Below, piece by piece: positions 24,673 through 62,640 of a DNA stretch of 64,000 nucleotides. The DNA comes from Marsupella aquatica. Taxonomy: Eukaryota > Plantae > Marchantiophyta. Positions within the stretch are counted from its first letter, which is position 1. Each line of letters begins with the position of its first letter. The stretch covers positions 9,673,839 to 9,737,838 of the forward strand of contig OZ316893.1 in the NCBI GenBank assembly GCA_973895155.1, read 5' to 3'. The position numbers were made by a program, and so were the translations under genes. The notes under the pieces were generated by a model. That model worked only from the letters and a program-made list of their open reading frames with translations. It had not been told where the DNA came from and did not search any database.

Positions 24673-24710
24673 AAGAAGAAGAAGAAGAAGAAGAAGAAGA
24701 AGAAGAAGAA
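24673..24710 (+). repeat. (AAG)n microsatellite, ~12 units
   Basis: Poly-Lys run in ORF 24505-25068. The young LTR copies have only KKK at this position. Confidence 0.9.
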
Positions 24711-27357: not shown

Positions 27358-28504
27358 TAAGCCAAAACAAAACCAGCACAATTGGGTTAACACCAACCCA
27401 TAACCCGATTCACATGGCTTCTAAAAATTAGGGGGTTTGTTGGGGCTGGTGGGGTGGTGCATCAAGGTTTTGGGGTTATGGAGGGTGGCATATATGGGGA
27501 AGACCCTCAAAGAACACTTAAACGATCGGAAAATTTAAAAATTCAAATTTTTGAAATTTTGCGAAGGCGCCAGCTTCGCATTCATAAGGACAATTACGTT
27601 TGCGAAGTTGGTTGCGATGCGAACGTCTTTGCAACGCCTTCGCAAACGTAAGCAAAAAAAGGGCATAATAAGGTTTGCGAAGGATTTGCGAAGCTACCCG
27701 CATCGCAAATGTATCGCAAACTCTGTCATGGCAAAAACCCGAGAGGGAAGCAACTGTACGTGACCTAATCTGACACAACAAGTCTAATTGTAACTACTTG
27801 GTGGAAATGCAAGAAAGAGTTGGCTCATTGCAGGTGTGTTGGAATAGGAATTGGAGTAGCAAGAAGTCAAGGGAGGAGAGGGAGGTGCACTCACGGGTAT
27901 AGCCACCAAGACAGGAAACAGGAAAACAGGAATTCTGGTAGCAGTTTTTTTTTGTTGTTATCAGGAACATGTTGCTGTTACCAGGAAAAGTTAGTCATTG
28001 GAACAGGATAATACTTCATTACTTCAAGCCAGATACATCTGAAAAAAAACAATATTCATTGCGCTTCATTTACATTCTAGAGCTTAGAACCAACTAACAC
28101 GACAATAATTGTTGTCTGAACACCAACATACTTCTGGAAAATAGTGTCACGGGAAAAAACATTGACATGGTAGGTCCCACCATAAGGAACATAATATTAT
28201 ATGCCAACAATAAGGCAGAAACCACAAATGAAAACTCCAGACAATTTGAAACACCACCGGCGATGGGCTAGCGCCTGGCGCTAGCTAAAATGGAAACAAC
28301 CAACACATTTAGAAAATGACATTGGATAAATGCAGAATGTGGGAAACAAAAATTTAAAATATCATTTGTAGTGGTAGGATTACAATGAAGTAAATGGTAA
28401 TAAGGAAGACTTCCATCCCAACGCCAGGCGCTAAAACAAAACTATACCGTTGTAATACGATAAAATATATAACCGTTTCGAGTATCGGACAAATATATCC
28501 TTCT

Positions 28505-31500
28505 CTATAAACCATGAGCATTCTCCCTTTCCAAGATCAGTCGGACTTCTCCAACTGTGAGAATTGGTTGGCTGGTCAAAGTAGATTCCTCAACGTCTAG
28601 TTTGAAAACGTTCTTGAAAACCCAGTACAAATGTTTGCAAGGCATATATGGATGTCTACAAGAATGTCGACGATAGAAATCCTCACAAGAACAAGTCGGG
28701 AAAATACAAATCTGCACAAAGTAACTATTCGGCGTCCTTAGATTCTCATGTGTTTGTACTTTGAATTGCTTCCCCCATGAGTTCCCAATAGAAACATCCC
28801 ACTGTCCCTGGACGGACATGGTCTCTTTTCTTGCAGATTCAATCCTCTTCATGTGGCCATGGGTCAAGGTCGATCTAGGAACCGTGTTCTTTCCATTCCG
28901 ACTCCGGAGACGAACAGTGGGTTCCAGAAGATTGACTCTCTCTGGAAATAAGTTTACATTGATTCGAAGCTCGAAAAGTGATGGTGGAGGTAGAGGACCG
29001 TCTCTTCCTCGGGCTATAGGTATTCCCTGGTCAAAAAGATACTTCATCTCGGCTTCCGAAACATTTGTTCCTTTTATAACAGGAAGAACATCGGGAAAGG
29101 AGGGCAGGTTCACTACACCACGGCGGGGACGGCTCCGATAACATGTGTTGTTTGGGCAGAACCAAATCATTTCGGCTATGGGTTCCCCCCTGAACATGCG
29201 TTGTCCTTTGACAACAATGCCGATGACACCGTTTGATGAGGGGAACCCAACTTTCTTCACTCTATTTCGGCACTCATCTCTATTGGAACTACCGCCAAAT
29301 GACGCGTTGCACTGTGGAACGGCCCCAAATCTTGATGTCCGACGCAGATGCCATGAACCCTGCATGACTTTTGTTTCAAGAACTGGAGATTGGAGCGATG
29401 TCTGCTGAAGTACAGTGGGAGCGCTTTGTGGGTATTGTGTTGAACGTGATTGATGTCGACCTTGCGGTGTACTGAAATCATCACGTTCTACATCCCTCGA
29501 ATCATCACTTCTTGAGAGATTGACAACGGAAATGTCATCAGGTTTTTCTTTCGATACGGAAGCAAACATTGTGTGGTGCAGATTTTTACGCTTGAGTGAT
29601 CTGGTATTCGGCGATGTGATAAGGACTTTATCATGCCGGTGGGAGTCTTGTGGCGAGACAATCCCAGTTGCAGGTCCTTTCCTCTTGACAGACTTTGTTA
29701 GACCATCTCCGTTGAGAGGAACGCTTCTCTCCAAGTCAAACTCAGCTGCATTGGAGAGGAGCATGTTCATCGCATCCTCGAATAGCTTTGGGGAACCTGC
29801 CTGGTCAGCTGAACGGAAAGCCAGTTCCCATATTGTAGGACCTCTTCCTCTACTCAATCCTTTCCGATATGCGGTATAGGCTGCAACCTGAGATATAGCT
29901 CGATTCTGATCCATTTCACATGCCTCGAAGAGCCCCACTTTTTTTTTCATTACCCATGCTTTCATTCCTGCGTGAACAGACTCTGATCCGGTACAGTTAG
30001 GAATCCTAGCGCCTTCTTCAGCACTTTTGTCCTGGAATGGCAAAGCATAAACACTAGTAAGAATCCGCGAAACATACTAGCGCCAGGCGCTAGGCAGAAC
30101 ATTTCGACAAAATCATCAATATTATTGTGTAATCACATGTTTATGAAAATAAACAGGTCAATATTTGAGATTCAATGACATTATTTGGATTCTTTGGATG
30201 GAATGTTGAGGAATGTCATCTCAAAAATGTACTTCCACAAAGGAATCTGACTTGCATATTACTAGCGCCAGGCGCTATTACCTACCAAGCGAATAAAATT
30301 TCCCCACTGCCTCCAACGCACGACCCACCACGATATCCAACTCTGAAGCATGCGGAGCTTCCCAGGTAAGCAGTTACCCGATTGCCACCATAGGTCAATC
30401 TCTCTTGAAAGTCGGTAAGCCTCTACAAATGTCGGTGCGTTCCGTAATTTATCCCATAGCATTCGATGTTCCGCCTGCTTCTCTTCCAACACTCCTTCAA
30501 CAGAATGGCGATGAAAAGCTTGGTAAAAATGAAAAGCGTCTGTCCTCTCCCGTTCAGGGTTTGGGTGCCCTCCAAAAAAAACATTTTGGACTGCTAACCA
30601 TCCGGCTTGGGCATTGTCTGCCATGAAGCCATGAATGATTGGATTATCTAACCCATTCTCTTTGGAAACCTCAATCATCAATCTCCAAGCCTTCTCGAAC
30701 GACGCCGTGTCCTCAGCTTTTAGCTCGCAAGTAAATATTGTACACAATGCGCGGTAATTATGATCGTAAACATGTGCGCTGAAAGTGACCCAATCCTTGG
30801 TCATTCGTTTCATGACATCGAAGCTTACCCAGGCACCTTCAAGCATCCCTCCAGGTTGCATTTGCCGCAAAAGATCCACCCCAGACCCATGGCCTTTGGA
30901 AGTCATCTTGAATATGTGAGGCTTGTCTTCTTGAGACCCTTGACCTGGAAGGATGTACCTCTGCAGAAAAGGCATGTTGATATTCTTTTGATACCGAACG
31001 AGAAAATCCAACTCTCCACGGCCTTTCTGGTCCTGCCTCACACTCCTGAAAAGAGATGCAAACTTCTATGGAGTAGAAACTACCATTAGAGACTGGAAAA
31101 TCTCCGTCTCTTCAATATCTTCAATCTCACCCAGGCTCTCACACAAAGACTGTACAAAAGATCCTGTAGCTACATTTTTAATCCCGATAGGCGTCCAAGT
31201 AGGATTGCCTTCCAATTTCTTTTTAATGACATCTTCAACTACCTTTTCCGCACTTCGGGAAAATACCTTACGACAAGGATGGTTGTGGGTGCCCACATGA
31301 ATCGCAAGGCGAGACATGTGACTACAGGTATCTGAGTCAAGCAGAACTTGAGGATACATATAAAACAGTCTTGCAGAGCATGCCTCTACACAAAAAGGGA
31401 GCTGTTGGCAATAATGACAAACAACTCCACCCTGGTCAATAAATGATCCAACACGGTGAGAGCCTCCAAGTTTTGGGGTACCAGCCCATGCCTTTGCATT

Positions 31501-32271
31501 CCTCCTCTTCTTTCGGCGGAAGTAGTCACAAGTTTTATTCCTGCACTCAATAAATCCAGTACAAGTGACTTTACCAAATTCCCAGTATTTTTTGGGCTGC
31601 ACGTTTGCAGTGGTAGGAAATATTCTTGTCCAGATGTAGCAATCCTTGGTTCGGTCCATGTCCCGTAGACAGGATCCTTTTGAAAGAATTCCCGACGACG
31701 GAGGCAACTCAAACACAACGTCTCCATTGTACTTCGGAGGCAAACAAGGTGCTTGTTCATGCTGGAAGTTTCCAGCCGAAATGAACCTCGAAAGTTTGCT
31801 GGACCCAGTTGACTTGAGCAGCGCGTCCATTGCACTTCTCCGGTATACAATATGGGATTGCGACGATGGCATCTCCTCTTTGACCAAGACAACGTCAGGC
31901 GCCAAAGGCTCCACAAAGGGGATCCTTGGTGTCTACTCATCATCACTATCAGAAAGAGCAACTACATCCATGGGATCCCTCTGAGGGGATTGCCGGTCTC
32001 CTTCATTTGGTTCCCAAACGACAATGGAGTAGCACAACCCAGCATTAAGGTGCCAAAATCTCACGCCTTCATCGACATCAAAAATTGCGACAAATTCAAA
32101 GTCATTGGCTTCCGTTCCCTCCTGAACAATTGCCTCTATGTCATTCATGCGCAAATCAAACCTTCCACAAAGATAAACCTTACTTATTTGCCTGTACCTT
32201 TCGTCCACAGACACTGGAATGGAAACGATGTCACCGGTGGACATACGTGTAACTACGATTGACTGAGACAT
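28505..32271 (-). pseudogene. MULE transposase, ~1170 aa: GCM-like DNA-binding domain, DDE core, C-terminal SWIM zinc finger
   Basis: ORFs 31933-32325, 31066-31914 and 30262-31041 share one frame, separated by single TAG stops. A GT-AG intron (30285-30032) joins them to 28505-30031. Motifs: DCYIW..CTGFIECRNKTC..CHYC..C..HVGTHNHP; SFDVMK, FMADNAQA, ESVH; CSCEDF..CKHLYW. Confidence 0.85.
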
Positions 32272-32502
32272 CACAAAAGCCTCGGAAGCAAATGAGCGCT
32301 GGAAAATTATGAATCGAAATGCCACCGACGAGGGCTGTTATCGATCCTGACTAACAGTTCCCTAAAGCCGTTATAATAAGACAATCCTCTGACACCATAA
32401 ATGTATTTTGTCGTTATATCAACGTCATTTACGATCAACGTCATTTAACAATAAACGTCATTTAGGAAGAACCATATTGTTCTAGAAATATCAAATGATG
32501 AA

Positions 32503-32955
32503 TAGCGCCAGGCGCTATTAAAAACAATACAAAAGTAGAGGCTCATGCAGAGTCAATTTATGTGTAGCGCCTGGCGCTATTAATAACAATCCAAAAGTTT
32601 AGGGCCCGTCTAACGTAAATTTATGTGTAGCGCCAGACGCTAATAAAAGAAAATGACATAAAACTAATTCCTAAAGGAGACACTGGATGATTAGCGCCAG
32701 GCGCTAATATTGATATCATTAATATTATGAAATTCTAAAATGGTAAAAAGTAGGAGCAGGAGCCTTCAAAAGGCTGAAAAGGATTTGTTTTTTGCTAGCG
32801 CCGGGCGCTAGTTTTCTTTTGTATCAGAAATATGATAAAATCAGATTTAGGGGAAGTAATGGAGTATTAAAGACTCTTATGGCTCTATATTGAATTCCCA
32901 ACTGACATTAAAATTGAAGATTTTAGGCCTTGGAAATTACTAGCGTCGGGCGCTA
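32503..32955. promoter_or_regulatory. Cluster of six TAGCGCCNGGCGCTA palindromes in the divergent intergenic region
   Basis: Copies start at 32503, 32565, 32628, 32692, 32796 and 32941. The regulatory role is inferred. Confidence 0.7.
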
Positions 32956-33271
32956 CTATTTGGTGAGTAAAAATGAATTCGATATATTCTCAGGTTTTCC
33001 TTTCAACGGTCATATTCAATGGTAACTATAGGTTGCGTGACCCTCAATACATCGATCCCCTTATGTGTTGTCGCATAAGATAATGACATGTGTCATAGAT
33101 CCAGGCCATGAGTTCAGTTTCCTTAGCGTATATGTCATGCTCTGTGCTCTAGATTCTTCTTATTTCCCATGTTAAGTACAGTACGATCAAAGCTGTGTGA
33201 CGGGTTTTTGCCGTTCGCGGTACGGAAAGAGCACGGTGGTCATCACTACTTCCTTTGCCCTTGTGCGAGCA

Positions 33272-33894
33272 ATGGACCCTGCCTTTTCCTCCTCTCAATG
33301 CTTTAGTGGAAACGGGCACAGAGAGGTCGTTCCCTCGCAAACATCTGAGTGCTCATTTTCAGGATCTGTGTATAGTCATCGAGTGACTCGATCCGCTGCT
33401 TCGCGAGATCCTGCAGCACAACCCGCTGTATCGTTCCCGAATAGCAAGAGAGGGAAGATGGATGATTCTGATTCGTTTGCTATGGAGGACTTTGGAGAGA
33501 CGTCGCTGACTGTTTATGATGTGATCTCCAAACACATTATGTCGTTTGGAAAAGATTTTCGAGGACATGACAAGGATCCGCCAAGGATTCCAATGTGCCG
33601 ACTACTCCATATGGAAGTAGTGCGGACCTTACAGAAGGGAAGTCCTTCGATAGAGAAGCTGAAAGACTCCTTTGAGAGCACAGGATACAATTCGAAGATC
33701 GGCATGCTGTTTTACGTCCAACCAACAGATTCCAATGGAGAAGTTCAGATTTGCACGCCAGAGATCCGTGCTTCCTGGGATGCAATTTGGGTCGCAGAGA
33801 ACGAAAAGATGAGGCGGAATGTGCTGCCGACCCTGACTTCTCCGTCCTGCAGGATAAGATGTTTTATGTGTTTGATGGAAACCATCGACTCTAC
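33272..33894 (+). pseudogene. MULE accessory gene, 5' part: ParB/Srx-like domain (interrupted by the Gypsy)
   Basis: ATG at 33272 and a 1-nt frameshift near 33810. ...KMFYVFDGNHRLY joins AWSIV... after removal of the Gypsy and one TSD. Confidence 0.75.
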
Positions 33895-36800
33895 TGTGGT
33901 GCGTCCCATGGCTCCCTAAACCCAAGAAACCCCCCAGCTCAAGCCGATTCCCGCAGGTTTCGTGCTTGGCGAGGCCGTTTCCGCGGCTTAGTGGCATGGG
34001 ACGCTGCTAACCTTCTACTACTACTATTAACATTTTACACACATATACTGGACAGATCCTTCATCGGGTCATGAGATACGTAGCCGGCCTAATATAGGCC
34101 TTCCCCTGTCTTCCCCTGTCTTCTTGTTAGGTATGTTTGGATTCCGCCGCCGGAATGATCCCCAATAGGCTTGGTTAAGCCGCTAAGACCTCTCTCAGCT
34201 CGACACATCCAACTCTCACTCCCCTGCTTACTTTCCTTCCTTCTGTTGATGTGGGCACTCTTCACACAAGTTAATGCGACACACAAATAGCAAAATGACT
34301 CATTCTGACTGAGTCATACCATGCACTTGCCATACAAACAGTACATCTCATACACAAGTTCTGCGAACTAAGCCGTGAGGCCAACTCTATTCAGCTCTTA
34401 GGCATGAGGAAACATGAATATACACAAGGGTCACTGTATGACTAACCGAGAGCTTCTCGTACTACTTGATCCCAGCCCGGCTGGTGCAAACTAAAAACTT
34501 GCTAAAGAAGAGGCCCTGAGCTCCCCGCTGCCCAGGTACTTATCCTGGTAGTGGATCCGCCATTCTTTGCATCGTAAGCCTAATCTACTTAACAGTAATC
34601 TACTTGCCCGAATCTACCTATGTACAGCAAGGCAGGAGCACAAGTGTTGCTCCTACCAGTGGGACCGCAATCCCACTAAGCTAAGTGTCAGGGCCGCTCC
34701 TGGTTCTGATCCTAATCCTAAACGTGGAGATCCTCGCCCGCCCTGCCCACTCACGCCTCCTCCCTCCACGTCCGCCCTCCCTAAAAGGAACGGCGCCCTT
34801 GCACCGTCACGACACCGGTGGTGGATCCTTAATGGACGCCCCCAACGCTTCCTCCTCAGCCACTGCCGTAGGTTCATTCTCTGACAGATTACCTGCCCTT
34901 GACTGAGTCAACTCTCCATCGGCCTGACTGGGTCCACCTTCGGCTTCAGTCTCGACACCGGCCTCGGCAATACCCACGGCTTTGGCCTCAGTCACTCCCT
35001 CGGCTTCGGCCTCTCCTTTCCCTAGGGTAGTTGGATCCCTAGCCGTGACCCTGTCTGGGGTCGGTGCTGGGTCTACCTCCTTGATCACCACGGCCTGTGA
35101 AGTCGTATTACTCCTTGACCCTGAAGGTTTCCGCTTCTTCTTCGTTGGTGGCTCGGCAGCTGGTCCCTTCCCCTTCCCACTTACTTCCGGCACTGGTGCA
35201 GGTGGCGCGGCTTGTCCTTCGGCAATTACCACCCCTGGTAACTGGTTTGTCCCAACGGGAGATGGACCTGCTGCAGCTAAGCATTTAAATACTGCGGCTT
35301 GTTTCTTTAGCCGCTCTGTTTGGTTGTCGGCCCGCCGTTGTAGGTTCTCCATCTTCCTCGTGATTTCCTCCAACTCCTCTTGGGTTTCATCCAGGTCCTT
35401 ACGTGCCCCCTCCAGCTTGTTTTTGGCCTCCTCCTGCTCCCTGTGGGCTTCCTCCAATTCCTTCTTCAAGGTAGCCCTCTCCTCCTGGATTGCTCTTAGC
35501 TCCTTGTCGAGCTCTGCAATGATGACAGACTCCATCTGGTTCATCTTGGCGTAAGTCTGTTCGAGCATCTCGTCCTTCTCCCTTAGGTCGGCCTTGAAGC
35601 TGGCCGTCAGGGACGCAAGCTCCTGCTGCAGCGCCATAATCCCTTGATAGGATTTCCCTAACTCGACCTCCTTCTGCTCAAGGGCTCCGCGGATTTTCTC
35701 GAGCTCCCCTTTCAACGCCCATTCCTTTCTTTGGGTCTCCGCCATGGCCCGGCTGTTGGCTGTTATGTGGGCCTCCTCTGTATTCTTCAGCTCTTGCTTC
35801 CACTTCTCCCTCTCTTTGATCGTGTCGGCCAACTCTTCCTGCGTCTGAGTCAGTTTATCCTTGATATTCTGATTATCAGCCTGCGCGGTGTCCAACTGCC
35901 CTTGCATGATGTTCAGCTCATGTCGTTTAATCCGCAGTTCATCTTGGGCTTTCTTGGCCGCCCTTAGATCTTCAATCTCGGCTTCCATCCTCCTAAGCCG
36001 TCGAATGACCTCGTCCTTCTTGCTTCTCTCTAAGGCCACCGCTTCTTCTAATTGGTGCTTCTCCAACTGCTCCCTATGGAAAAAGGGTCCTACCTCCAAC
36101 TCCTCTCCAAAGATGCCGAGCGCAAGTTCCCCACACATCTCACCATACTCCATGGCTCTATTCTTAGCGTAGGTGGAGTAAGTAGAAGTGATCGGCATCG
36201 CCCATCGTGGCCTCTGCTCCCAAGCCGTCCTGCGGATCTCTTCAATCGTGGCTAGAGGTTTGCTTCCTTTTTCGGCTAGCCGCCTGATGTCCTCCGGCCA
36301 ATCTCCTCTTGGTAAATCCTTTTCCTTAGCCAGGGCGGCCTCTTCCTCCTGCTTGATTCGCTCCTGAAATTCCTGCACCGTCTGTTTTATGCCATCGAAG
36401 CTCGGGGGAGCAACATCTGGTGGGGGAGACTCAAGGCTACTCTGCTGGTTGGGGTCCCCTCGCACTACCCTTGGAAGTGTGGGGACAAACCGGCCACAGG
36501 TCCTTACTCCTGGAACGTGATGGTCCGACCCATAGCCGGAATTATCATGGCTGCAGTCCTCCACTGCCTCCTCTACCTCTTGGACGTCCGGCTTCTCCCT
36601 CTCCTCTTCGTCAGTAGGAGCTTCAGGCAATTCTGCCTCAGATTCGGAGCTTGAGGTTCCCACGTACATTCGAACACCTGGCTTGGATTCCGGCCTGATT
36701 CTCTCCTTGTCTCCAGCAAAGGGGTTTTCTCTTGTGAGCCGGTGTAGGCCTACCTCTGTAGTAGTGTCCTGCATTGTTGCCGTTGCCGTTGTTGTTGCCG

Positions 36801-41752: not shown

Positions 41753-42774
41753 TTAGCCGTTTCATCCAATTGGTCTACATCCTTTACTTCCTCCGGAATT
41801 GCAGCTAAAAAGGTGGATTCTATTGTAAAGCAATCCTCGACCTCTTCGTCTTCTTCTTCCAAGTCACCTTCCATTGGTTCTTGCCATAATCCGCTGGGGG
41901 GTACCTCTGGTCCAAAGACACCTTCTTCGGTTAGGTTAGTGAGGCATTCTAACCAACGTACTTCATCGGCTGACTCCAGTCCACTGTCGTACCCATCTAC
42001 TTCCCTTATGCTTTTCCTACGGTCATCCTTAGTGTCCCAGGATACCGTGATAGAGGGGGTCCCGAAAGTGAACTGCTTTTTACCCCAATCTTCTATTACC
42101 TCGGCTAGGTACAGCCATGGCCTACCAATCAATAGCCGGAATGACGTAGGATTTACCGGCTTCATTACTACATAGTTAATGCTAAAGAAGATACCTCCTA
42201 TCTCTGTCTTGATGCCGGTTAACACTCCCGTCGGAATGACCTGATATCCATTGGCCATGTTCAACACTCTTCCAGTCATCTCCGGTGTTAGACCCCACCC
42301 TTTTGCTGTTGAATCAATCATAATACATACCCCTGATCCTCCATCGATGGGTACCCGTAGTAATAATTCTCCTTGAATCATTAATGGTAATGCTGGAGCT
42401 CCTTGATCTTCTTCTATTATTAGTACGTCGGATCTGGTTGCTACCTTGGATAATCTCGGCTTGCCGAGAATAGCCTTCCTTAATTGCTTCCGGAAGTACG
42501 GGCTATTTTTCAATAGTTGACCTACTGTTGCCGAGACTCTAGATTCTAGTACATCTTTAGCCAGGTCATAGGGAACAATCGGCTTCTCTTCTGGTGGTGT
42601 TTCCGTCTTGGATTCGGCCAGTTTTGCCACGCTAGTCTCCACAGCTGTTGGGTCTTCCGAAGCAAACAATGCTTTTGCTCGTTTTACATCCTTGGCAATG
42701 GCTTCGGTATTCTCCAGGGTTTCTAATTCTCTTAGTTGTTCCTTAACACTAGCCGTAACAGAGGGGTAGAACAA
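41659..42774 (-). CDS. Retroviral-type aspartic protease region
   Basis: PIDGGSGVCIM and LLIGRPWL motifs. Same frame as gag across one TAA; different frame from RT. Confidence 0.85.
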   Translation of the reverse strand: MFYPSVTASVKEQLRELETLENTEAIAKDVKRAKALFASEDPTAVETSVAKLAESKTETPPEEKPIVPYDLAKDVLESRVSATVGQLLKNSPYFRKQLRKAILGKPRLSKVATRSDVLIIEEDQGAPALPLMIQGELLLRVPIDGGSGVCIMIDSTAKGWGLTPEMTGRVLNMANGYQVIPTGVLTGIKTEIGGIFFSINYVVMKPVNPTSFRLLIGRPWLYLAEVIEDWGKKQFTFGTPSITVSWDTKDDRRKSIREVDGYDSGLESADEVRWLECLTNLTEEGVFGPEVPPSGLWQEPMEGDLEEEDEEVEDCFTIESTFLAAIPEEVKDVDQLDETAKWGAVAGTVDFLQALWQSRRGPQRHRSSARN

Positions 42775-43068
42775 CTTAGGATGATCTCGATTGAAGTCGC
42801 TATCTTGTGAAGGATTGGTTTCACTGGTGGGCTCATGGCTTACCTGTATTGCCGGAGCCCTCCCTTCTCCTTCTGTTGATGTTGACGAAGAGTCGATCCT
42901 TTCCTCCGTAACCTTCCCTTTATTTTTGGCCAGCCCATCCCACCTTTCCTTCCTTCTGGTAGATCGAGTAGAGACCCGGTAGCAATCATGATCTAAATCC
43001 TCCTCTGAGAAGGTTGATAGGGCTTCGGCCTCATCATCAGATGGTACGAACTCTGCCTCGGCATCCTC

Positions 43069-44460
43069 TTACCATCCTAGTTCGATGTGGTTGATTTGAA
43101 CTCCTCCGGGGGTAGTACCTGGCGGTAAGATCTTGATCGGCAAAAGCTTATGATTTGCGGCCAGGCCTGCCAACCAAGTAGGACATTGCCCTAGCATATG
43201 ACCTTCCTGTCGGCATCCCATAATTAGCTGAGCTGGTTGTCCATCACCCTGTTTGCATGCATTCGGGCATTCTCTAGCAAAATGGCCAGGTTGACCACAA
43301 TTATAGCATGCCGCAAATCTTTGCACATTCGGCCTAGGAGGTACTGACGGGTTCTGAATAATCCGAGGATACATCTCTCCTAGATTGTTCCTTAACCCTG
43401 ACCACAGAGATGCAGGTCTGTTGGATAGGTCTCGTGCTCCAGTCTCACTGATGCCGAAAACACTATCAGCGGCATCTCCCAAAAAGTACTCTACTTCTCC
43501 CTGACATGGTCTGATCTCGGCCACATGCCGAACATGATTAGTATTAAGCTTAGGACACGCATCTTTATGGTGTCCGGTTTTATAACATAAGGCACACCAT
43601 ACAGAGCTATCCTCCTGTACTACCTTCTTCTTTGGTTTTACCTCTACAATGATAGCCTTAAGTTGCTCGGTAAGGGCTACGATGTTATCTGGTGGCTTAG
43701 CCTCCATCTTGACTTTCGTCTTCCCTCTCCTTCTGCCCTTCCTTTTCCTAGTTTTTTCTTCTTCAGAACTAGAAGATGACTCACTCTTGCTACTCCCACT
43801 ATCCGAGCTTGACTTATCACTTCTAGACTTCTTGGGATGTTTCTTCTTCTTATCTTTTTTCTTATGGGGTGATCCCTCCTCTGATGAGGAACTCTCAGAC
43901 TTAAGCTGTTTCTTCCGGCTTGTGATATCTGCATTAATGTATAATTGAATATCCTTAATTGCTTCGGCTAAAGTCTCCGGGTTCTCCTTCCTAATTGCAA
44001 AACTCATCTTCTGTGGCAAAGCATTCACCAACCATTGAAGTTGCATACCTTCAGATGCATTGGTCTTTGTACGTCTTACCAGTTTCTGAAAGCGTTGCAA
44101 GAACTTCCTGAAGGATTTGTTCTCCTTGAACCGAAGTTGTCCCAACTTCAGCACTGCTAGTTCTGAAGTTCCAATGGGTCGAAACTCCTTAACAAAGAGT
44201 GTTTTGAAGATATCCCAGATGGCTTGATCTTCCACATCTAATGCTCTGTACCAAGGCCTAGCCTCACCCTTGAACAGGCCGGGAAGAATCTGCATCTTGA
44301 TGGCCGATTCTCCATTTGCTGCAGCGGTTCCCTCAAAATCATCCAACCATTCGTCCGGATCCTCATCTCCTCTCCCATGAAATGCCTTGTAATGTATGCG
44401 CGACCGCTGGCTCAATCTGGTCCCTGGCCTCTCGTCTGGCCGTGCCTCTGGTTCCCCCAT
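43069..44460 (-). CDS. gag: Gag with CCHC zinc knuckles
   Basis: FHGRGDEDPDEWL..F, GEARPWY (retrotransposon gag); CALCYKTGHHKDAC and CYNCGQPGHFAREC. Confidence 0.92.
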   Translation of the reverse strand: MGEPEARPDERPGTRLSQRSRIHYKAFHGRGDEDPDEWLDDFEGTAAANGESAIKMQILPGLFKGEARPWYRALDVEDQAIWDIFKTLFVKEFRPIGTSELAVLKLGQLRFKENKSFRKFLQRFQKLVRRTKTNASEGMQLQWLVNALPQKMSFAIRKENPETLAEAIKDIQLYINADITSRKKQLKSESSSSEEGSPHKKKDKKKKHPKKSRSDKSSSDSGSSKSESSSSSEEEKTRKRKGRRRGKTKVKMEAKPPDNIVALTEQLKAIIVEVKPKKKVVQEDSSVWCALCYKTGHHKDACPKLNTNHVRHVAEIRPCQGEVEYFLGDAADSVFGISETGARDLSNRPASLWSGLRNNLGEMYPRIIQNPSVPPRPNVQRFAACYNCGQPGHFARECPNACKQGDGQPAQLIMGCRQEGHMLGQCPTWLAGLAANHKLLPIKILPPGTTPGGVQINHIELGW

Positions 44461-44699
44461 GTCGGTTGGAGACTCACTTCTCCTTACCGACTCTTCTTCT
44501 GGTATGTCTTCTTCGACGCCACTTCCAGTTTCGGAGCTACCAGCTCTTTCTGCCCCTCTCAGTCACTGTGTATCATGCCACCCGGCGAGCTGCTGCAGTC
44601 GAGCTCTCTCCCGTTGAATCACTCTTTCTTCCCTCGGCGTAAGGTCAGTCATTACCTACACTTCCGTTCTAACTTCATATCTCACGGCTTAAGAAATGC

Positions 44700-44717
44700 C
44701 CCCTCCATCTAGCGCCA
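44700..44717 (-). other. Primer-binding site
   Basis: TGGCGCTAGATGGAGGGG starts 4 nt after the 5' LTR end. Cognate tRNA not identified. Confidence 0.75.
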
Positions 44718-44721
44718 AAAA

Positions 44722-47700
44722 TGTGGTGCGTCCCATGGCTCCCTAAACCCAAGAAACCCCCCAGCTCAAGCCGATTCCCGCAGGTTTCATGCTTGGCGAG
44801 GCCGTTTCCGCGGCTTAGCGGCATGGGACGCTGCTAACCTTCTACTACTACTATTACCATTTTACACACATATACTGGACAGATCCTTCATCGGGTCATG
44901 AGATACGTAGCCGGCCTAATATAGGCCTTCCCCTGTCTTCCCCTGTCTTCTTGTTAGGTATGTTTGGATTCCGCCGCCGGAATGATCCCCAATAGGCTTG
45001 GTTAAGCCGCTAAGACCTCTCTCAGCTCGACACATCCAACTCTCACTCCCCTGCTTACTTTCCTTCCTTCTGTTGATGTGGGCACTCTTCACATAAGTTA
45101 ATGCGACACACAAATAGCAAAATGACTCATTCTGACTGAGTCATACCATGCACTTGCCATACAAACAGTACATCTCATACACAAGTTCTGCAAACTAAGC
45201 CGTGAGGCCAACTCTATTCAGCTCTTAGGCATGAGGAAACATGAATATACACAAGGGTCACTGTATGACTAACCGAGAGCTTCTCGTACTACTTGATCCC
45301 AGCCCGGCTGGTGCAAACTAAAAACTTGCTAAAGAAGAGGCCCTGAGCTCCCCGCTGCCCAGGTACTTATCCTGGTAGTGGATCCGCCATTCTTTGCATC
45401 GTAAGCCTAATCTACTTAACAGTAATCTACTTGCCCGAATCTACCTATGTACAGCAAGGCAGGAGCACAAGTGTTGCTCCTACCAGTGGGACCGCAATCC
45501 CACTAAGCTAAGTGTCAGGGCCGCTCCTGGTTCTGATCCTAATCCTAAACGTGGAGATCCTCGCCCGCCCTGCCCACTCACGCCTCCTCCCTCCACGTCC
45601 GCCCTCCCTAAAAGGAACGGCGCCCTTGCACCGTCACGACACCGGTGGTGGATCCTTAATGGACGCCCCCAACGCTTCCTCCTCAGCCACTGCCGTAGGT
45701 TCATTCTCTGACAGATTACCTGCCCTTGACTGAGTCAACTCTCCATCGGCCTGACTGGGTCCACCTTCGGCTTCAGTCTCGACACCGGCCTCGGCAATAC
45801 CCACGGCTTTGGCCTCAGTCACTCCCTCGGCTTCGGCCTCTCCTTCCCCTAGGGTAGTTGGATCCCTAGCCGTGACCCTGTCTGGGGTCGGTGCTGGGTC
45901 TACCTCCTTGATCACCACGGCCTGTGAAGTCGTATTACTCCTTGACCCTGAAGGTTTCCGCTTCTTCTTCGTTGGTGGCTCGGCAGCTGGTCCCTTCCCC
46001 TTCCCACTTACTTCCTGCACTGGTGCAGGTGGCGCGGCTTGTCCTTCGGCAATTACCACCCCTGGTAACTGGTTTGTCCCAACGGGAGATGGACCTGCTG
46101 CAGCTAAGCATTTAAATACTGCGGCTTGTTTCTTTAGCCGCTCTGTTTGGTTGTCGGCCCGCCGTTGTAGGTTCTCCATCTTCCTCGTGATTTCCTCCAA
46201 CTCCTCTTGGGTTTCATCCAGGTCCTTACGTGCCCCCTCCAGCTCGTTTTTGGCCTCCTCCTGCTCCCTGTGGGCTTCCTCCAATTCCTTCTTCAAGGTA
46301 GCCCTCTCCTCCTGGGTTGCTCTTAGCTCCTTGTCGAGCTCTGCAATGATGACAGACTCCATCTGGTTCATCTTGGCGTAAGTCTGTTCGAGCATCTCGT
46401 CCTTCTCCCTTAGGTCAGCCTTGAAGCTGGCCGTCAGGGACGCAAGCTCCTGCTGTAGCGCCATAATCCCTTGATAGGATTTCCCTAACTCGACCTCCTT
46501 CTGCTCAAGGGCTCCGCGGATTTTCTCGAGCTTCCCTTGCAATGCCCATTCCTTTCTTTGGGTCTCCGCCATGGCCCGGCTGTTGGCTGTTATGTGGGCC
46601 TCCTCTGTATTCTTCAGCTCTTGCTTCCACTTCTCCCTCTCTTTGATCGTGTCGGCCAACTCTTCCTGCGTCTGAGTCAGTTTATCCTTGATATTCTGAT
46701 TATCAGCCTGCGCGGTGTCCAACTGCCCCTGCATGATGTTCAGCTCATGTCGTTTAATCCGCAGTTCATCTTGGGCTTTCTTGGCCGCCCTTAGATCTTC
46801 AATCTCGGCTTCCATCCTCCTAAGCCGCCGAATGACCTCGTCCTTCTTGCTTCTCTCTAAGGCCACCGCTTCTTCTAATTGGTGCTTCTCCAACTGCTCC
46901 CTATGGAAAAAGGGTCCTACCTCCAACTCCTCTCCAAAGATGCCGAGCGCAAGTTCCCCACACATCTCACCATACTCCATGGCTCTATTCTTAGCGTAGG
47001 TGGAGTAAGTAGAAGTGATCGGCATCGCCCATCGTGGCCTCTGCTCCCAAGCCGTCCTGCGGATCTCTTCAATTGTGGCTAGAGGTTTGCTTCCTTTTTT
47101 GGCTAGCCGCCTGATGTCCTCCGGCCAATCTCCTCCTGGTAAATCCTTTTCCTTAGCCAGGGCGGCCTCTTCCTCCTGCTTGATTCGCTCCTGAAATTCC
47201 TGCACCGTCTGTTTTATGCCGTCGAAGCTCGGGGGAGCAACATCTGGTGGGGGAGACTCAGGGCTACTCTGCTGGTTGGGGTCCCCTCGCACTACCCTTG
47301 GAAGTGTGGGGACAAACCGGCCACAGGTCCTTACTCCTGGAACGTGATGGTCCGACCCATAGCCGGAATTATCATGGCTGCAGTCCTCCACTGCCTCCTC
47401 TACCTCTTGGACGTCCGGCTTCTCCCTCTCCTCTTCGTCGGTAGGAGCTTCAGGCAATTTTGCCTCAGATTCGGAGCTTGAGGTTCCCACGTACATTCGA
47501 ACACCTGGCTTGGATTCCGGCCTGATTCTCTCCTTGTCTCCAGCAAAGGGGTTTTCTCTTGTGAGCCGGTGTAGGCCTACCTCTGTAGTAGTGTCCTGCA
47601 TTGTTGCCGTTGCCGTTGTTGTTGCCGATGCCGATTTCTTTTCTTTCTCCAGTAGTTTCAGCAGACTCTGCATGCCTGGTTGCTGCATCGGCAAGTCTTC

Positions 47701-49348
47701 CTTCCTGGGCCTAAACACCTGCTCGATCGTAGGACTAACAGGTGGTTGAGGCTTCTCAGCCAACGGCCTTGGCGTTGGAGCTTCCTCGGGTGCCTTTACC
47801 TGCAGGGGAAGTACCGGGGCAAAAGTCTGACCTCTGGCATACCGGCACAACAGCGGCATGTGATAGCCAAGCCACGACACGCTCCCCATGCCGATTACCT
47901 GCTGCTCCTCCTTTAAGATCTTCTTCAATTGGTTGAGGAGGTACCCGTTGTAGTCCCGGCTTGGGTCTGGCCTTTCTGCCAGATAGACCTGTGCCTTGCC
48001 GATCTTTGCCCTCAGCAAGTTACAATGCATGGTCACCCGCAAGAAGTCGATCATCTCTCCTATGTGCGGGTTGGTGCAGGTGTTCCGGAAGAAGCCATTC
48101 TTCGTTGATGGCCCGGGGAACGACCGGAACTCCTTGTCAGGCAAGGTCTTCCTGGTATCAACTTTGGTCTTATTGCCTATCGGCAAGCCAAACACTTCGG
48201 CAATTACCTTGGGAGTAAGATAGAAATCGTTCCCATATATCCTCGTGCAATTGGTCTCGGGTTCCCATGACCCCACGAATTCTAATAGGTCTGACTCCGG
48301 TACCTCCGGCTTCAGCCATGGTAATCTTACAAAGGCCTCCAAGCCGGATCCGGCCATGAAGCCTTGGTACTTCTTGGTCTGCATGGCCGTAAAGCATGCA
48401 TCCTCCTCCCGTGCAAAATGTAGTTGCACCTCCACCGGTAGGGTTGCCGCCCAGCCCTTCCAGGTGTCATCCCTGGTTGGAATGGCCTTGATGGGATCGA
48501 CCTCCTCCTCTTCGGCTTCTCCCTGCCTCCTGCTCTGCTGCTCGGCTGGCCTCTTTGGTGCCGCCGACCTCGTTCTTTTTGCCGGGGTGGCTTCATCGTT
48601 GACGGCTCCCTTCCTCTTCATCTCTGCTGCCGTGGAGGTTTCTCCTAGCACCGTTGCCTGGGTCCACCTTTCCGTGCTACCCTTTAATTCCCAGTGTATG
48701 TCGTTGCAGTTCTTGATGGCCTCTCGGATGCCGACGACGCTGTCTTTGCAAAACAGAAGATCGTCGAGTTGATTGGAAGTAGGCGTCCACAGGAACTCGT
48801 CCTTGATGAGTTCGCCTCCTAAGAAAGCCGTCTTCTGCAGCTCCCACAATCGAGCGAGCTCCTGCCGTTCTCGAGCTGCCCTTTCTGACTCCTCGTCCTC
48901 GTAAGTCTTGATGTACTCAGTTGCCCGTTCGAACAGGCATCCCCAGAAATGTGCCGCTTGATTGACGTTGCTCATACCCTCCTTAGGTCGATCGTCGGTA
49001 TCTACTCTCTCCCCGAGTGCTTGCCTAAGCAGCTGACAGTAGTTGGCCTCCCGTAGTCGTCTGCCTAGTTCGTGCTCGCAAATGAGCCACCATCTCCTGC
49101 AAGCGCTCCTTACCCCTCTCCTCTGCCGGTCCTTCTTCCCGTTGATCCTTCCTAGCCGCCGACGCTTAACGCGCCCTAACCCTAATCGGGTTTTCACCCT
49201 CAGCCTTACCTCCGGCCTCTGCCCGGGTTCCATGGTTGCCCCTAATTGTTTATATTTTCCTTGTTTTGTCACTATACTAAGGTGTTCCTAGGGTGCCTTC
49301 CTGCTTTACCCACTTAACCGGCCGAGTGATTCCTGTCTAGGCATCACA
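44722..49348 (-). repeat. 5' LTR (4627 bp)
   Basis: Near-identical to 33895-38521. Followed on the minus strand by the PBS. Confidence 0.95.
45634..49272 (-). CDS. LTR-encoded 1212-aa protein (5' LTR copy)
   Basis: Intact ORF, about 15 aa differences from the other copy. Confidence 0.8.
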   Translation of the reverse strand: MTKQGKYKQLGATMEPGQRPEVRLRVKTRLGLGRVKRRRLGRINGKKDRQRRGVRSACRRWWLICEHELGRRLREANYCQLLRQALGERVDTDDRPKEGMSNVNQAAHFWGCLFERATEYIKTYEDEESERAARERQELARLWELQKTAFLGGELIKDEFLWTPTSNQLDDLLFCKDSVVGIREAIKNCNDIHWELKGSTERWTQATVLGETSTAAEMKRKGAVNDEATPAKRTRSAAPKRPAEQQSRRQGEAEEEEVDPIKAIPTRDDTWKGWAATLPVEVQLHFAREEDACFTAMQTKKYQGFMAGSGLEAFVRLPWLKPEVPESDLLEFVGSWEPETNCTRIYGNDFYLTPKVIAEVFGLPIGNKTKVDTRKTLPDKEFRSFPGPSTKNGFFRNTCTNPHIGEMIDFLRVTMHCNLLRAKIGKAQVYLAERPDPSRDYNGYLLNQLKKILKEEQQVIGMGSVSWLGYHMPLLCRYARGQTFAPVLPLQVKAPEEAPTPRPLAEKPQPPVSPTIEQVFRPRKEDLPMQQPGMQSLLKLLEKEKKSASATTTATATMQDTTTEVGLHRLTRENPFAGDKERIRPESKPGVRMYVGTSSSESEAKLPEAPTDEEEREKPDVQEVEEAVEDCSHDNSGYGSDHHVPGVRTCGRFVPTLPRVVRGDPNQQSSPESPPPDVAPPSFDGIKQTVQEFQERIKQEEEAALAKEKDLPGGDWPEDIRRLAKKGSKPLATIEEIRRTAWEQRPRWAMPITSTYSTYAKNRAMEYGEMCGELALGIFGEELEVGPFFHREQLEKHQLEEAVALERSKKDEVIRRLRRMEAEIEDLRAAKKAQDELRIKRHELNIMQGQLDTAQADNQNIKDKLTQTQEELADTIKEREKWKQELKNTEEAHITANSRAMAETQRKEWALQGKLEKIRGALEQKEVELGKSYQGIMALQQELASLTASFKADLREKDEMLEQTYAKMNQMESVIIAELDKELRATQEERATLKKELEEAHREQEEAKNELEGARKDLDETQEELEEITRKMENLQRRADNQTERLKKQAAVFKCLAAAGPSPVGTNQLPGVVIAEGQAAPPAPVQEVSGKGKGPAAEPPTKKKRKPSGSRSNTTSQAVVIKEVDPAPTPDRVTARDPTTLGEGEAEAEGVTEAKAVGIAEAGVETEAEGGPSQADGELTQSRAGNLSENEPTAVAEEEALGASIKDPPPVS

Positions 49349-49353
49349 TCTAC

Positions 49354-52300
49354 GCATGGTCCATCGTCACGAAGGAGAATCTGGATGATGTGAAATACCA
49401 TCCTCGCGTCCAGTGCACAATATTCAAGGGAGAAAAGGGGTCCTTGATCGAGATTGAGGCGGCGATGCACACTGTTAACCAGTAAGTGTCTCTTCCAATA
49501 TATTTCTAATGTAATCTATGATCATAGTGTTTCACTAGCGCCGGGCGCTACTGACTCCCTCTCTTGTTTTCAGGCTTGGGCAGGCAGTGGTCAAACCCTC
49601 TTGGATACTTGATGCAGACCGTATCAACCGAATACTCTCGAATGAACTCGATTACTACAAGTCTATCATTGACGCTGCAAACTTCAAGAAGTTTGGGCAG
49701 ATCATGCAGAAAATACGGAAGGGATCGTGGTATACGAAAAAAATGCCTCAAGAAGCACTTCTGTACATCTTGTGTGAGAATAAGATCAAGTCTTATTCTC
49801 GACAGTTTAAGATGGATCTGGAACATGCTGCCGCTCAGGGTACACCTTGGTCTCCCGGAGAGATTTCAAAAAGACATGCAGCGATGATGAAGGAGGCAAC
49901 AAAGGATTGGGCGATAAAGGTGTCAAAAATTACTCCTCTGTTAAGCCCCGCCTTTGAGGATTTCATCCAGACATGTGCTAAGATGTACCCCCTCACAGAG
50001 AAGAATAAGAAAGAGAAGAAGCCGGATGCAGTTGTCTGTACAATGGATCGAGCAAGATTGTTTACCGCTGTCTCTGCCCTCGACCCTAAGCTAAGGAGTA
50101 CCCTTCTGGTTGCCCATTGTACACCGGAGTTGAGGAAACAATTCTTCCATCCTCAGAGTGTAAATGACGATCCAGTGAAGCAATGGTGCCATACCTGGCA
50201 AACTTGGAACACTGTGGAGGGAATTGCCGTTGGTTTGCTGCAAACCTCCCTACGCCAGGTCAGTGATATAGTCCCTGCCAATCGGTTGCAGGAGTGGGAG
50301 TGTGAGTCGATCGAATCGCTTATTGAAATAGTCTCAAATGACTTCAAGAAATTTGGGGACGCTGTGAAAGGCAAGTTTTTTAATACAATGTGGCCTTCCA
50401 AGTATCCCGACAAGGCTGACTACACCCTCAAGAATCAGAAGAGGGCCAAACGATACCTGTACCGTTTCATCATGCATATGGAGATTGTGAAGCCAGATTA
50501 CTTTTGGGCATACCCTGCTGCTTTCCAAAAGTGGATCGTTGTTCCCGAAGGAGACATACTGGCCGACGTGTATTCAATGTATCCCGCTAAAGGGTGTCTT
50601 CCACCAAGGGAACTATCAGAATGGGAGAGAATTCATTGTCCTTGGTATTTGGACACCGATAGATGGGACTCTCCATTCGGAGACACTGAGAAAGACGCAT
50701 TTCATAAGCTTTCAAAAACTCAGGTCCCTCCCAAGTTTGTGTCCGACATGAAGCAAGGAATCGAAGGTGATGTGAGCAAGTCAGCGTCAGAATTGCAAGC
50801 GGTGTGCAAAACTACAGTTGTTCATGTTGATCGAAGTCGCAAACCCAGAGCCAAAGCAAAAACCGAAGCTACGGCACCGAGTACCTCAACGCGGTCCGCC
50901 AAAAAACGTAAGTTGTCATTCAGCTTGGAGCCTCACAGTTTGGTTAGCGCTAGGCGCTGCTATATGACTATGACTATTGGTTTGTTCAATTGGTTTGGAC
51001 AGCGCCTGGCGCTATTATTCAGCATTGAATAAACTCTGCTCTTTTTCCTTTAGGTGGGAGAAAGTTTGACGCTGCAACCGATGAAACAAAAGTAGATGCC
51101 ACTCCGGAGCCTTCCGAAGCCAATACCGGTGCCCAGTCAGACCCAGTAACTCCAATTGACAAAGCGAAAGAGATTGTCCCTCTTGATGCAACCAGTACAA
51201 AGAAGAAGAAGAAAAGGGCAATTCAAGCAGGAGAATCTTCCCGAGATGATGCCGCTGGAACTGGCGTTCAGAGAGATGTGGGAACCTTCAAGAGCAAATC
51301 TTCTAGGCATTGCATGGTGGAAACAAGTATCCAAGAATTTATTGATATTGCTTTCAACAAAGCAGCAAAACCAGATTGGGTGACTGATGCAGAGAAATGG
51401 GGAAAGGACTTAATCAAGTCGGGTTCCCGAGAAAAGGGAGTAATCAGAGGAGGAAAAGAAAGATCGTTTGGTGTCAATGCAGGATTCATCTATCTTCCTA
51501 TTGGACTTAAACCTACGCTCATGGACCGTCGGGTTCCAAAGTGGAATGTACCAGACCACACAGTTCCCAGTTCTTTCTTCAAAGCGATGGACCCGTTCCT
51601 TTCTAATGATGGCATGCTTGCGATCTTGTATTCTGATGACCATGACCAGGTCTCGCAAGTCATTTCAGCATGCCAGCAGTCCAAAAAGTTCCATTGTGTC
51701 AATTCTCACAATGTCGTCATGTCTATGCCCATGTACAGAGCAAAGACCGATATTCAAGTACAGATCATTGAATCTCTTGTTTATTGTTAGCGCCTGGCGC
51801 TAACTTAGTCTTTGCTGTTGTTCTCAAGTCATTACCCGTCGGTTCATAATTTGAGCCTAACGTGTGCGATGCGTGCAGGTATTTACCCTTAGGCTAGACA
51901 TATTTTGTCGGACTTCTTCAAAAGGGAAGGTACCAAAGGATCCACGGTTTAAGCCTCTTTCAAGAAGTGAAGATCCTTCGATCTCTAACTTGATTGGGCT
52001 TCCAACCTTGAAGACAGATCATTTCCCGGAGTTGGATTTTGCTGGGAACGCTTGTCTTTCGGTTGGTTTTATGCAATCGGTGATAGAGCTCTTTACTCTT
52101 CCTGGAGATATTGTCCTTGACTGGACTGTAGGTTCAGGAAGCACATTCATTGCTGGTGATTTTTCTGGTCGTTTCGTGATTGGGTTGGAAAATAGGCGTG
52201 AGTTTGTTGAGACCGCATCAAGGGTTTTCTTAGAACTTCTTGATCCCAAGCATGTTCCGACATTGCCTCCTCCCGCGACCAATTTAAGTGGTCGCAAAAA

Positions 52301-52839
52301 GAAAGATAGGCTCCGATCTGTTCTCAATTTTGATTCCGATGAAGAGGAAGGTACCTCTAGAGACGTCGGAGATGACACAGAGAAAACCCAGGAGGAAGAT
52401 TCTTTGGAGAAGAGCAAAGACTCAGACGAGTAATGTTCTTCCAGTAAGCTTCTTTATCCTTTCAAGTGTTGTTGACAATTCTGGGTTCTTGCTCTCTTAT
52501 CTCCTAAACTGATATTTTTTTCCGTTTTACTGGATCAGATCAGAATGGAATCTGAGGAAGCGTTTCCAACTCCGGAGGAGACTAGCTAGGAATGTAATTG
52601 TCACTCCTGAGAAGCCGTTTGTTTTGCCCTCATACGCTGAAAATGCCGCTAGGAGGGTTGACAAAATTAGAACGCTTTGTTGGGAAACAAAAGGTCTACG
52701 TCTTCAAAGGGGAGCAGATAGGAAGTTCATGAAGAACCCTTATATAGATGATGTTTCCCGAAGCAAGTACATTGATGACGAAGCTGAGTCCACGGACAGA
52801 TCTGAAAGCTCCGCATCAGAAACATCTGGTAGTTTATAG
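49354..52839 (+). pseudogene. MULE accessory gene, 3' part: central region plus N6/N4 DNA-methyltransferase-like domain
   Basis: GT-AG introns 49482-49573, 50908-51053, 51758-51878 and probably 52430-52538 all preserve frame. C-terminal IELFTLPGDIVLDWTVGSGSTFIAGDFSGRFVIGLE resembles the SAM-binding end of beta-class N6_N4_Mtases. Confidence 0.75.
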
Positions 52840-53628
52840 TTAGCAATGGGGTTTTCTTAGAATACGTCGTTTAATGTTTCAATATGTAAGCATTTCGATG
52901 AATTGGCTGATTTTAAGCCCTTTCAACTTTTACTAGCGCCAGGCGCTCCTCAAACATACTGTCTTTATTTTATTTTTATTTCAGATTCTTCAAGTTTGAG
53001 TTATGAGGACGTGTGCTGAGGTGCAATATTGGCTAGCACCGGGCGCTTCCCAATCTTGTAAAGGTTCTTGGGTGTGGATTCTTTCCTGTTTGTGGTTGCA
53101 TAAATGTTTTGCTTTCCGTCTGATTTTGTGGTATTAGATGAACTGGCGTGAACAGTCATGGATCTTTGCAGCTAGATGTCTTCTGGAAAGACCCTGATCG
53201 GGAGGAGGCTGGAATAGACGATGGTTGTCAACTGGGATTACTGTAGTAGCTCCAGGCGCTACTGAAAGGTTTTGGTTAATTATAATTGACTTGAATAGCC
53301 TTCTGAGATCGAACATTTCATAACCCCCTTCATTAATTATCCTCCGAGAGTGCAATTGGTACAAATTATAAACTCTTCACAGCGCCCGGCGCTAGCAAAA
53401 ATCGTGGAGAGTTCCTACCGCTACGAGTTTCTTATATTTACTCCTGTTTGTCTTTTAAAAAAACCTCACCTTTGGCGTTATTTTTACCAGCGTCGGGTGC
53501 TACCAGAAAAAAATTTCAAAACTTTGAGACTAGAATTTTCCTGTTACTAGTATTTTTGCCTGTTACCAGTTTCTGTTATGAATACCTGTTTCCTGTTTTC
53601 CTGCCTTTTGTAAACACCTCGCACTCAC

Positions 53629-62637: not shown

Positions 62638-62640
62638 ACT

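Follow-up and report, generated by a model that had tools for sequence, protein, structure and literature searches.

A Mutator-like element of the liverwort Marsupella aquatica pairs a gene for a protein with ParB-like and methyltransferase-like regions with a dispersed palindromic candidate site

A 64,000-nucleotide stretch of the Marsupella aquatica genome (assembly GCA_973895155.1, contig OZ316893.1, positions 9,673,839 to 9,737,838; hereafter the window) contains a disabled transposable element that fits a Mutator-like element (MULE). Opposite its transposase gene lies a divergent accessory gene, whose predicted product joins a ParB-like N-terminal region to a methyltransferase-like C-terminal domain, and the non-coding DNA of the element holds 19 copies of one 15-bp palindrome. 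We favour, at a probability of roughly 0.4, the reading that a dimer of the accessory protein recognizes the palindrome through its ParB-type region, loads, spreads and keeps its element family transcribed in the manner of the VANC proteins of Arabidopsis, no mark being written. Across the readings considered here, the accessory protein is probably the factor that binds the palindromes. An initial annotation, made from the letters of the window, had described an inactivated element bounded by target-site duplications (TSDs), with a transposase and a divergent spliced gene of about 1200 codons, a ParB/Srx-type GxxRxxA motif, an N6/N4 methyltransferase-like C-terminus and some 19 palindromes restricted to its non-coding DNA and not noticed elsewhere in the window. 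These descriptive points are all borne out below.

Scanning the window for the palindrome TAGCGCCNGGCGCTA returned 9 exact matches, 15 with at most one mismatch, 18 with at most two and 20 with at most three, compared with means of 0, 0, 0.04 and 0.93 at the same levels in 100 dinucleotide shuffles. All 18 sites with two mismatches or fewer lie in the element's own DNA, as do 19 of the 20 with three or fewer; the 20th (43113) is inside a long terminal repeat (LTR) retrotransposon inserted into the element, and the remaining 53.7 kb of the window holds none at two mismatches or fewer. Although exons make up 70% of the element, leaving 3098 of 10,266 bp non-coding, every one of the 19 element sites falls outside the exon model (naive P ~1e-10). 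Two are left subterminal, two lie in the transposase intron, six in the divergent promoter region, four in accessory introns 1-3 and five are right subterminal; palindromes thus occur in four of the five introns of the element, accessory intron 4 having none, and those nearest to the element ends are 373 bp and ~120 bp away from them. Four of the promoter sites (32503-32692) sit in a tandem repeat with a spacing of 62-64 bp, while most of the others have unrelated flanks and keep both core CG dinucleotides. Every palindrome contains CG and CCNGG. The CCNGG core was considered as a methylation target of the accessory protein and set aside, having no support beyond its resemblance to known restriction sites.

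The palindromes persist in diverged copies of the element. Three contigs from public run X1 keep the right half-site of the palindrome at 49536 within an intron 1 that has otherwise diverged. At 28421, every contig of runs X2, X4 and X6 that spans the position is closer to the palindrome consensus than is the window copy.

The element spans 27896-53620 and is flanked on both sides by the 9-bp TSD GCACTCACG. Both of its ends are fixed by an empty site, as one contig of run X2 joins 27895 to sequence like that from 53630 onward (28 of 30 letters). The ends are short imperfect terminal inverted repeats (TIRs), the right matching the left in 25 of 29 aligned columns, and 8 of the element's 15 CAGGAA repeats lie in the terminal 150 bp (five left, three right). 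This concentration would offer sites of its own to the transposase. The transposase motifs, located by eye, comprise a Cys/His-rich N-terminal part, two candidate aspartates (around 30828 and 30627), a candidate glutamate (around 29986) and, at the C-terminus, a CxC...CxH finger; we take the N-terminal part to be GCM-like and the finger to be SWIM-like. No Pfam, NCBIfam or PDB match was obtained with the transposase exon pieces. A TSD of 8-11 bp is given as a criterion for MULEs (PMC6446971), and the 9-bp TSD, the by-eye transposase motifs and the ends together fit the assignment.

The window copy is dead three times over, through the LTR insertion, a frameshift in the accessory gene and two in-frame TAG stops in the transposase gene. 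The nested LTR element has the TSD TCTAC, and its LTRs (33895-38521 and 44722-49348) differ at 33 of 4628 bases (99.3% alike). Copies of the MULE free of this insertion exist, since six X4 contigs and four X6 contigs run uninterrupted from 33894 into sequence matching 49354 onward. The predicted accessory gene model starts with an ATG at 33272 and has four GT-AG introns and 1213 codons without internal stop; its single frameshift lies at codon 180 (near 33809) and is specific to the window copy, ten X4 contigs differing from the window at 33808.

The accessory gene belongs to a multi-copy family with liverwort homologs and is not a one-off capture, one of the cases that would have spoken against the initial annotation. 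The right half of the element was found in six public runs from three organisms and four studies, and at 80% likeness the contigs of these runs fill 30 of 30 bins of both halves in hundreds to thousands of pieces with a wide range of identities. Among variants in the accessory exons, 24 of 38 are synonymous, counted in a biased subset of the 80 best-supported of ~2000 rows. A HMMER search with the middle exon returned 111 proteins among 1.84 billion; of the 20 that were looked up, 8 are from Riccia sorocarpa and 3 from Calypogeia fissa, and no algal name is among the 20. A profile search, with a profile dominated by Riccia, returned 79 of 7986 candidates, all of them Riccia sorocarpa gene models. 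The Riccia protein R1sor_027256 (P0114, 1207 amino acids) is collinear with the window exons, at 26% identity over residues 72-1071 (E 2e-77), and is one of 10 among 184 collected proteins that match all four accessory parts. The family is diverse, 61 sequences falling into 16 groups at 60% identity. Word-index protein searches with single accessory exons gave no match, two metagenome scans gave no relative and a paired-palindrome scan of viral contigs gave no pair. No phage sequence matched the ParB-like part by tblastn; the methyltransferase exon matches 166 phage records, all below 60% identity, and no donor was singled out.

In the N-terminal region, the window copy carries the motif G-N-H-R-L-Y-A (GNHR at 33877), which is the GxxRxxA form and not the canonical GERRxR. 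The stretch D-G-N-H-R and a downstream N are near-invariant in homologs (R in 37 of 43, N in 43 of 44 sequences). KorB, with the motif GARRYR, is a CTPase that needs R117 and N146 for binding and hydrolysis of cytidine triphosphate (CTP), according to the accessible text of PMC11790492; the conserved R and N of the homologs appear to match these two residues by position. An AlphaFold2 model was built of the Riccia homolog P0116 (101 alignment rows, mean predicted local distance difference test score 76.7). In a wide VIA fold search over 48,161 chains, the three best matches of this model were KorB (Z 7.0, root-mean-square deviation (rmsd) 3.0, 95 aligned residues), PadC (Z 6.3) and Pnob8 ParB (Z 6.2). 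In a second-look comparison the top 13 rows were all ParB, Noc, KorB or PadC, with 7bm8 at Z 8.1, rmsd 2.7 and 99 aligned residues, and four chains aligned both their N-terminal domain and the ParB DNA-binding domain to residues 21-395 of P0116. Based on the consistent ranking and the motifs, we assign the region as ParB-like; the models, at moderate scores, give the N-terminus of the Riccia homologs a probable ParB/Srx-type fold. PDB sequence searches with P0114 and with the A2 profile returned no ParB, and residues ~400-580 of the P0116 model, which were barely searched, had no fold match.

In the Atlas, residues 10-200 of P0116 score 0.92 with a ParB_N cluster (in which the family is assigned to 32% of members) and higher, 0.96, with DUF3723, whereas the matches of the window's own 119-residue ParB fragment were all below 0.9. 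The DUF3723 clusters share 183-189 features with P0116 residues 10-200. DUF3723 is described as a conserved cargo gene of Starship elements (bioRxiv 10.1101/2021.12.13.472469), and it may carry a ParB-like domain; 'ParB' together with DUF3723 was not found in the literature among the matches listed.

The C-terminal domain is, by homology and modelling, a predicted beta-class amino-methyltransferase fold with its S-adenosylmethionine (SAM)-binding motif I retained. Pfam N6_N4_Mtase (PF01555) matches the 51879-52430 exon above its gathering score (E 3.9e-9), and the same SAM-binding exon matches PDB entry 5hek (E 5.6e-6), the profile match covering 5hek residues 71-235. The corresponding domain in the model of the Riccia homolog P0115 resembles CcrM (Z 18.2), PvuII (Z 16.6) and rotifer N4CMT (Z 15.6). 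Thus both folds named in the initial annotation have structural matches in models of Riccia homologs, the ParB one at moderate strength. The catalytic motif IV deviates: in the homologs it reads D-[LMI]-P-[TS]-G, which hhalign (96.4%) places opposite D-I-P-Y-N in a phage methylase, and over 24 aligned sequences position 4 is never aromatic, position 2 is never P and D comes first in 20. The window copy, with Y-L-P-I, has lost the D as well and does not conform to the canonical [DNSH]PP[YFW]. The base-stacking aromatic residue of motif IV belongs to the mechanism as described in PMC4738411. As the aromatic is missing in all 24 sequences, the domain is likely a pseudo-enzyme, catalytically disabled, and the claim that the accessory protein marks its own family is doubtful.

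A two-fold symmetric site fits a ParB-type dimer. Such a dimer would read the palindrome with its helical region, the part alignable to the central DNA-binding domain of ParB; the N-terminal domain would then bind nucleotide, close and spread from the sites over the 10-kb element. Occupancy of the divergent promoter, introns and ends might shield CG and CHG cytosines or recruit host demethylation, as VANC does for VANDAL, with the methyltransferase fold acting as a SAM- or base-binding module instead of a writer. The transposase, for its part, would likely use the terminal CAGGAA repeats, which are distinct from the palindromes. That the accessory protein binds the palindromes, uses CTP and counters silencing is what we infer from these features. 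A bolder version, in which a nuclear nucleotide-gated ParB clamp of land-plant transposons loads at the family palindromes, spreads and has in its inactive methyltransferase a shield against methylation by the host, the same module serving in helpers of further mobile elements in eukaryotes, DUF3723 of Starships among them, we regard as rather unlikely.

Several observations weigh against the reading of a spreading, anti-silencing ParB-type dimer. What was modelled are Riccia homologs with 24-26% identity to the window gene, not the window protein itself. With Foldseek, the first five rows for P0116 are Noc and ParB, yet the best E is 0.28, and a search of PDB and BFVD gave no match at E 0.001. 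The fold tool warns that Z below 8 can arise by chance, the ParB scores of 6-8 belong to the range it calls common, and the two-domain alignments come with an rmsd of 10-16. For the Riccia homologs, a link to MULE transposases or palindromes was not directly observed; the nearest to it is one gene model, P0085, a chimera that fuses a transposase-like N-terminal part to the accessory middle region. The observed/expected CpG ratio of the element exons, 0.72 (0.60-0.84), is higher than that of the host CACTA element (0.45) but resembles that of neighbouring LTR elements (0.62-0.69), so that the sequence gives no hint of special protection; CpG depletion, confounded by age, was discarded as an indicator for lack of support. 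Finally, a transposase can suffice by itself to bind and activate its family, as reported in bioRxiv 10.64898/2026.08.24.746577.

This last point leads to the possibility that the transposase, through its GCM-like region, binds the palindromes and that the accessory gene has another target. In the accessible text of that report, the AtMu1c transposase needs no accessory factor to bind its cognate motifs and activate the family. Its peaks, however, are at the TIRs, while here the TIRs hold CAGGAA and even the nearest palindromes lie 373 and ~120 bp inside the ends; moreover, with an unrelated transposase, that of Plavaka, palindromes again stand beside ParB accessory genes, as described in bioRxiv 10.1101/2025.02.11.637652. 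We consider transposase binding improbable. We give a similarly low standing to a model in which the palindromes are occupied by the accessory protein acting as a repressor like KorB or as an architectural end-pairing helper, so that transposition is limited or aided and host silencing is not countered. The crowding of 6 of the 19 sites at the divergent promoter and the seven subterminal sites would suit it, as would the first rank of KorB in the wide fold search, given that KorB is described as a clamp capable of long-range silencing (PMC11790492). The six intronic sites nevertheless fit coverage of the whole element better, and the kept methyltransferase fold points to DNA-modification biology.

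It is also unlikely, if less so, that the palindrome-binding accessory protein is an active amino-methyltransferase that writes N4-methylcytosine (4mC) or N6-methyladenine on its own element, as proposed for Ectocarpus Sola1. The beta-class fold is complete, with Z 18.2 to CcrM and a well-kept SAM-binding half, 20 of 24 sequences keep the motif-IV D, and 4mC methyltransferases of bacterial origin are reported to work in Marchantia (bioRxiv 10.1101/2021.02.12.428880). By contrast with MpDN4MT1, described as keeping TSPPY, the family has an aromatic at position 4 in 0 of 24 sequences and never P at position 2, and the window copy is without the D. That the palindromes are host-factor sites or a functionless by-product of local duplication is very improbable: four promoter sites do lie in a 62-64 bp tandem repeat, but the strict avoidance of exons, the absence of matches with two mismatches or fewer from the other 53.7 kb of the window, and the unrelated flanks of most sites around two preserved core CGs speak otherwise. 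Taken together, the reading of the initial annotation is partly upheld, namely in the family-wide gene, in the ParB-like and methyltransferase folds of the homolog models and in the non-coding palindromes that diverged copies keep; marking, and the implied novelty of the combination, lack support in the form given there.

With respect to novelty, the fused architecture and a self-binding, self-modifying role are already present in PMC12477816. The accessible text describes, in the Ectocarpus transposon Sola1-1_Ec32, a gene for 1104 amino acids with ParB-like and N4/N6 methyltransferase domains opposite the transposase. With reference to Iyer 2011 (green-algal cases) and the Bostrychia genome, its authors suggest that such accessory proteins form a class whose members bind the transposon encoding them and modify it. 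Both elements are thus large DNA transposons with the two domains in one chain of ~1100-1200 amino acids encoded opposite the transposase; compared by description, the present one differs in being a land-plant MULE with a defined dispersed palindrome and a degenerate motif IV. In the Bostrychia preprint (bioRxiv 10.1101/2025.02.11.637652), ParB genes lie beside inverted-repeat arrays: according to its accessible text, Plavaka elements carry PAG2 (PF01555 and SET) and PAG3 (ParB and 2OG oxygenase), with homologs on Mutator elements of Chondrus as well, and self-binding is proposed there too. The best HHpred hit of PAG3, 7BNR, is also among the fold matches of our P0116 model. Unlike here, PAG2 and PAG3 are two separate genes, and the repeats form tandem arrays beside PAG3 rather than being dispersed.

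Anti-silencing of VANDAL by VANC is proven in Arabidopsis (PMC5735166; PMC10398659), the VANC21 sites being in introns, intergenic and terminal non-coding DNA (PMC5735166). The common features, as far as these accessible texts describe them, are a MULE with an accessory gene and a short motif in non-coding DNA, partly in tandem repetition. The VANC motifs are 8-9 bp long and in the accessible text of PMC5735166 are not described as palindromes; unlike VANC, taken by description, the window accessory protein is predicted to combine ParB-like and methyltransferase folds, and its anti-silencing role is a putative one. With ParB/parS, Noc/NBS and KorB/OB (PMC11790492, accessible text) it would have in common a ParB/Srx N-terminal domain, a helical region aligning to the DNA-binding domain and multiple palindromes, whereas its P-motif GNHR in place of GERRxR or GARRYR, large insertions and the C-terminal methyltransferase fold set it apart, as do the lack of a ParA-like partner in the element and the eukaryotic nucleus in which it would act, if active at all. 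The fold, the order of motif IV before motif I and the SAM-binding loop are those of CcrM, M.MboIIA, PvuII, rotifer N4CMT and MpDN4MT1; motif IV, D-[LMI]-P-[TS] in the family, is not. Retrotransposon-borne DAM enzymes are a separate class, without mention of ParB or PF01555 in the accessible text of bioRxiv 10.64898/2026.05.21.726589. No land-plant ParB-methyltransferase transposon gene was found in the literature among the matches listed from freely accessible papers. As far as searched, what is new here is the land-plant MULE, the precise dispersed candidate site and the likely pseudo-enzyme.

Table 1. Features of the Mutator-like element, in window coordinates.
Feature	Position	Strand	Basis or remark
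Left 9-bp target-site duplication GCACTCACG	27887-27895	+	Repeat comparison, empty-site contig
Mutator-like element	27896-53620	.	10,266 bp once the nested LTR element is subtracted
Left end, short imperfect TIR with CAGGAA repeats	27896-28045	+	Transposase-binding role likely, by inference
Two palindromes 3' of the transposase	28269, 28419 (28269-28433)	.	Motif scan
Transposase gene	~28505-32271	-	One intron, 30032-30286; in-frame TAG stops 31933-31935, 31066-31068
Two exact palindromes, transposase intron	30078, 30263 (30078-30277)	.	Motif scan and gene model
Six palindromes, divergent promoter region	32503, 32565, 32628, 32692, 32796, 32941 (32503-32955)	.	Motif scan
Accessory gene, first exon part	33272-33894	+	Disordered N-terminus and ParB/Srx-like domain up to GNHR (33877)
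Nested Ty3/gypsy-type LTR retrotransposon	33895-49348	-	Class from open reading frame content by eye; splits the accessory gene
Accessory gene, remainder of ParB-like domain	49354-49481	+	MHTVN, equivalent to conserved MHNLN
Exact palindrome, accessory intron 1	49536-49550	.	Motif scan
Accessory exon, helical middle region	49574-50907	+	First part predicted to be the ParB central DNA-binding domain
Two palindromes, accessory intron 2	50945, 51000 (50945-51014)	.	Motif scan and gene model
Accessory exon	51054-51757	+	Linker and first half of beta-class methyltransferase fold; motif IV Y-L-P-I (51491)
Exact palindrome, accessory intron 3	51788-51802	.	Motif scan
Accessory exon, SAM-binding half of methyltransferase fold	51879-52429	+	Motif I at 52119; PF01555 E 3.9e-9; 5hek E 5.6e-6
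Probable last accessory exon, basic/acidic tail	52539-52839	+	GT-AG intron 52430-52538; weak matches (E 0.002) to Riccia C-termini
Five palindromes, right subterminal region	52934, 53034, 53247, 53380, 53488 (52934-53502)	.	Motif scan
Right end, imperfect TIR with CAGGAA repeats	53471-53620	-	Comparison with left end
Right 9-bp target-site duplication GCACTCACG	53621-53629	+	Repeat comparison

The window as a whole is a nest of four elements. The MULE is enclosed by a host CACTA element (26040-62637, TSD ACT, Tnp2 domains at 57900-60213), which itself breaks a reverse-transcriptase-like frame, by eye of the long interspersed nuclear element type (25852-26039 and 62638-63037), so that four layers are nested; a clean frame was not found when the interrupted CACTA open reading frame was read across the insertion. 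Of the 59 TCGCAA/TTGCGA hexamers in the window, the CACTA element holds 43 (4.0 per kb, compared with 0.3 elsewhere), in clusters at 26060-26580, 27550-27720, 54730-54830 and 62090-62620, that is at either end and within the internal non-coding DNA, frequently arranged as inverted pairs. The hexamer core is common to the Arabidopsis TnpA-Spm1 target CCVTCGCAAA, the exact 10-mer being absent from the CACTA element. Directly upstream of the CACTA transposase lies an open reading frame with a SET domain (56856-57686, + strand; PF00856, E 1.7e-5), which recalls the SET domain of red-algal Plavaka PAG2 as described and makes this a second element in the window with a chromatin-type accessory gene. 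In the LTR retrotransposon nested within the MULE, each 4.6-kb LTR holds an open frame of 1217 codons (34807-38460 and 45634-49287, - strand) with a coiled-coil-like C-terminal part; a related element, ~82% identical, lies at 18499-25852. At 8082-8479 there is a ~114-bp tandem repeat of 3-4 copies with ~95% identity, open in both directions.

Accessory genes that join ParB and methyltransferase domains are described from brown, red and green algae, where their role is in print as a hypothesis. To this the Marsupella element adds a precise candidate site, natural copies in large number, homologs in Riccia that are intact and annotated (e.g. R1sor_027256) and a sharp prediction, namely binding without methyl transfer. 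If the favoured reading is true, plants would have a second, prokaryote-derived mechanism of anti-silencing and possibly a DNA clamp gated by CTP in a eukaryote. The protein and its 15-bp site would then form a small module for targeted epigenome work.

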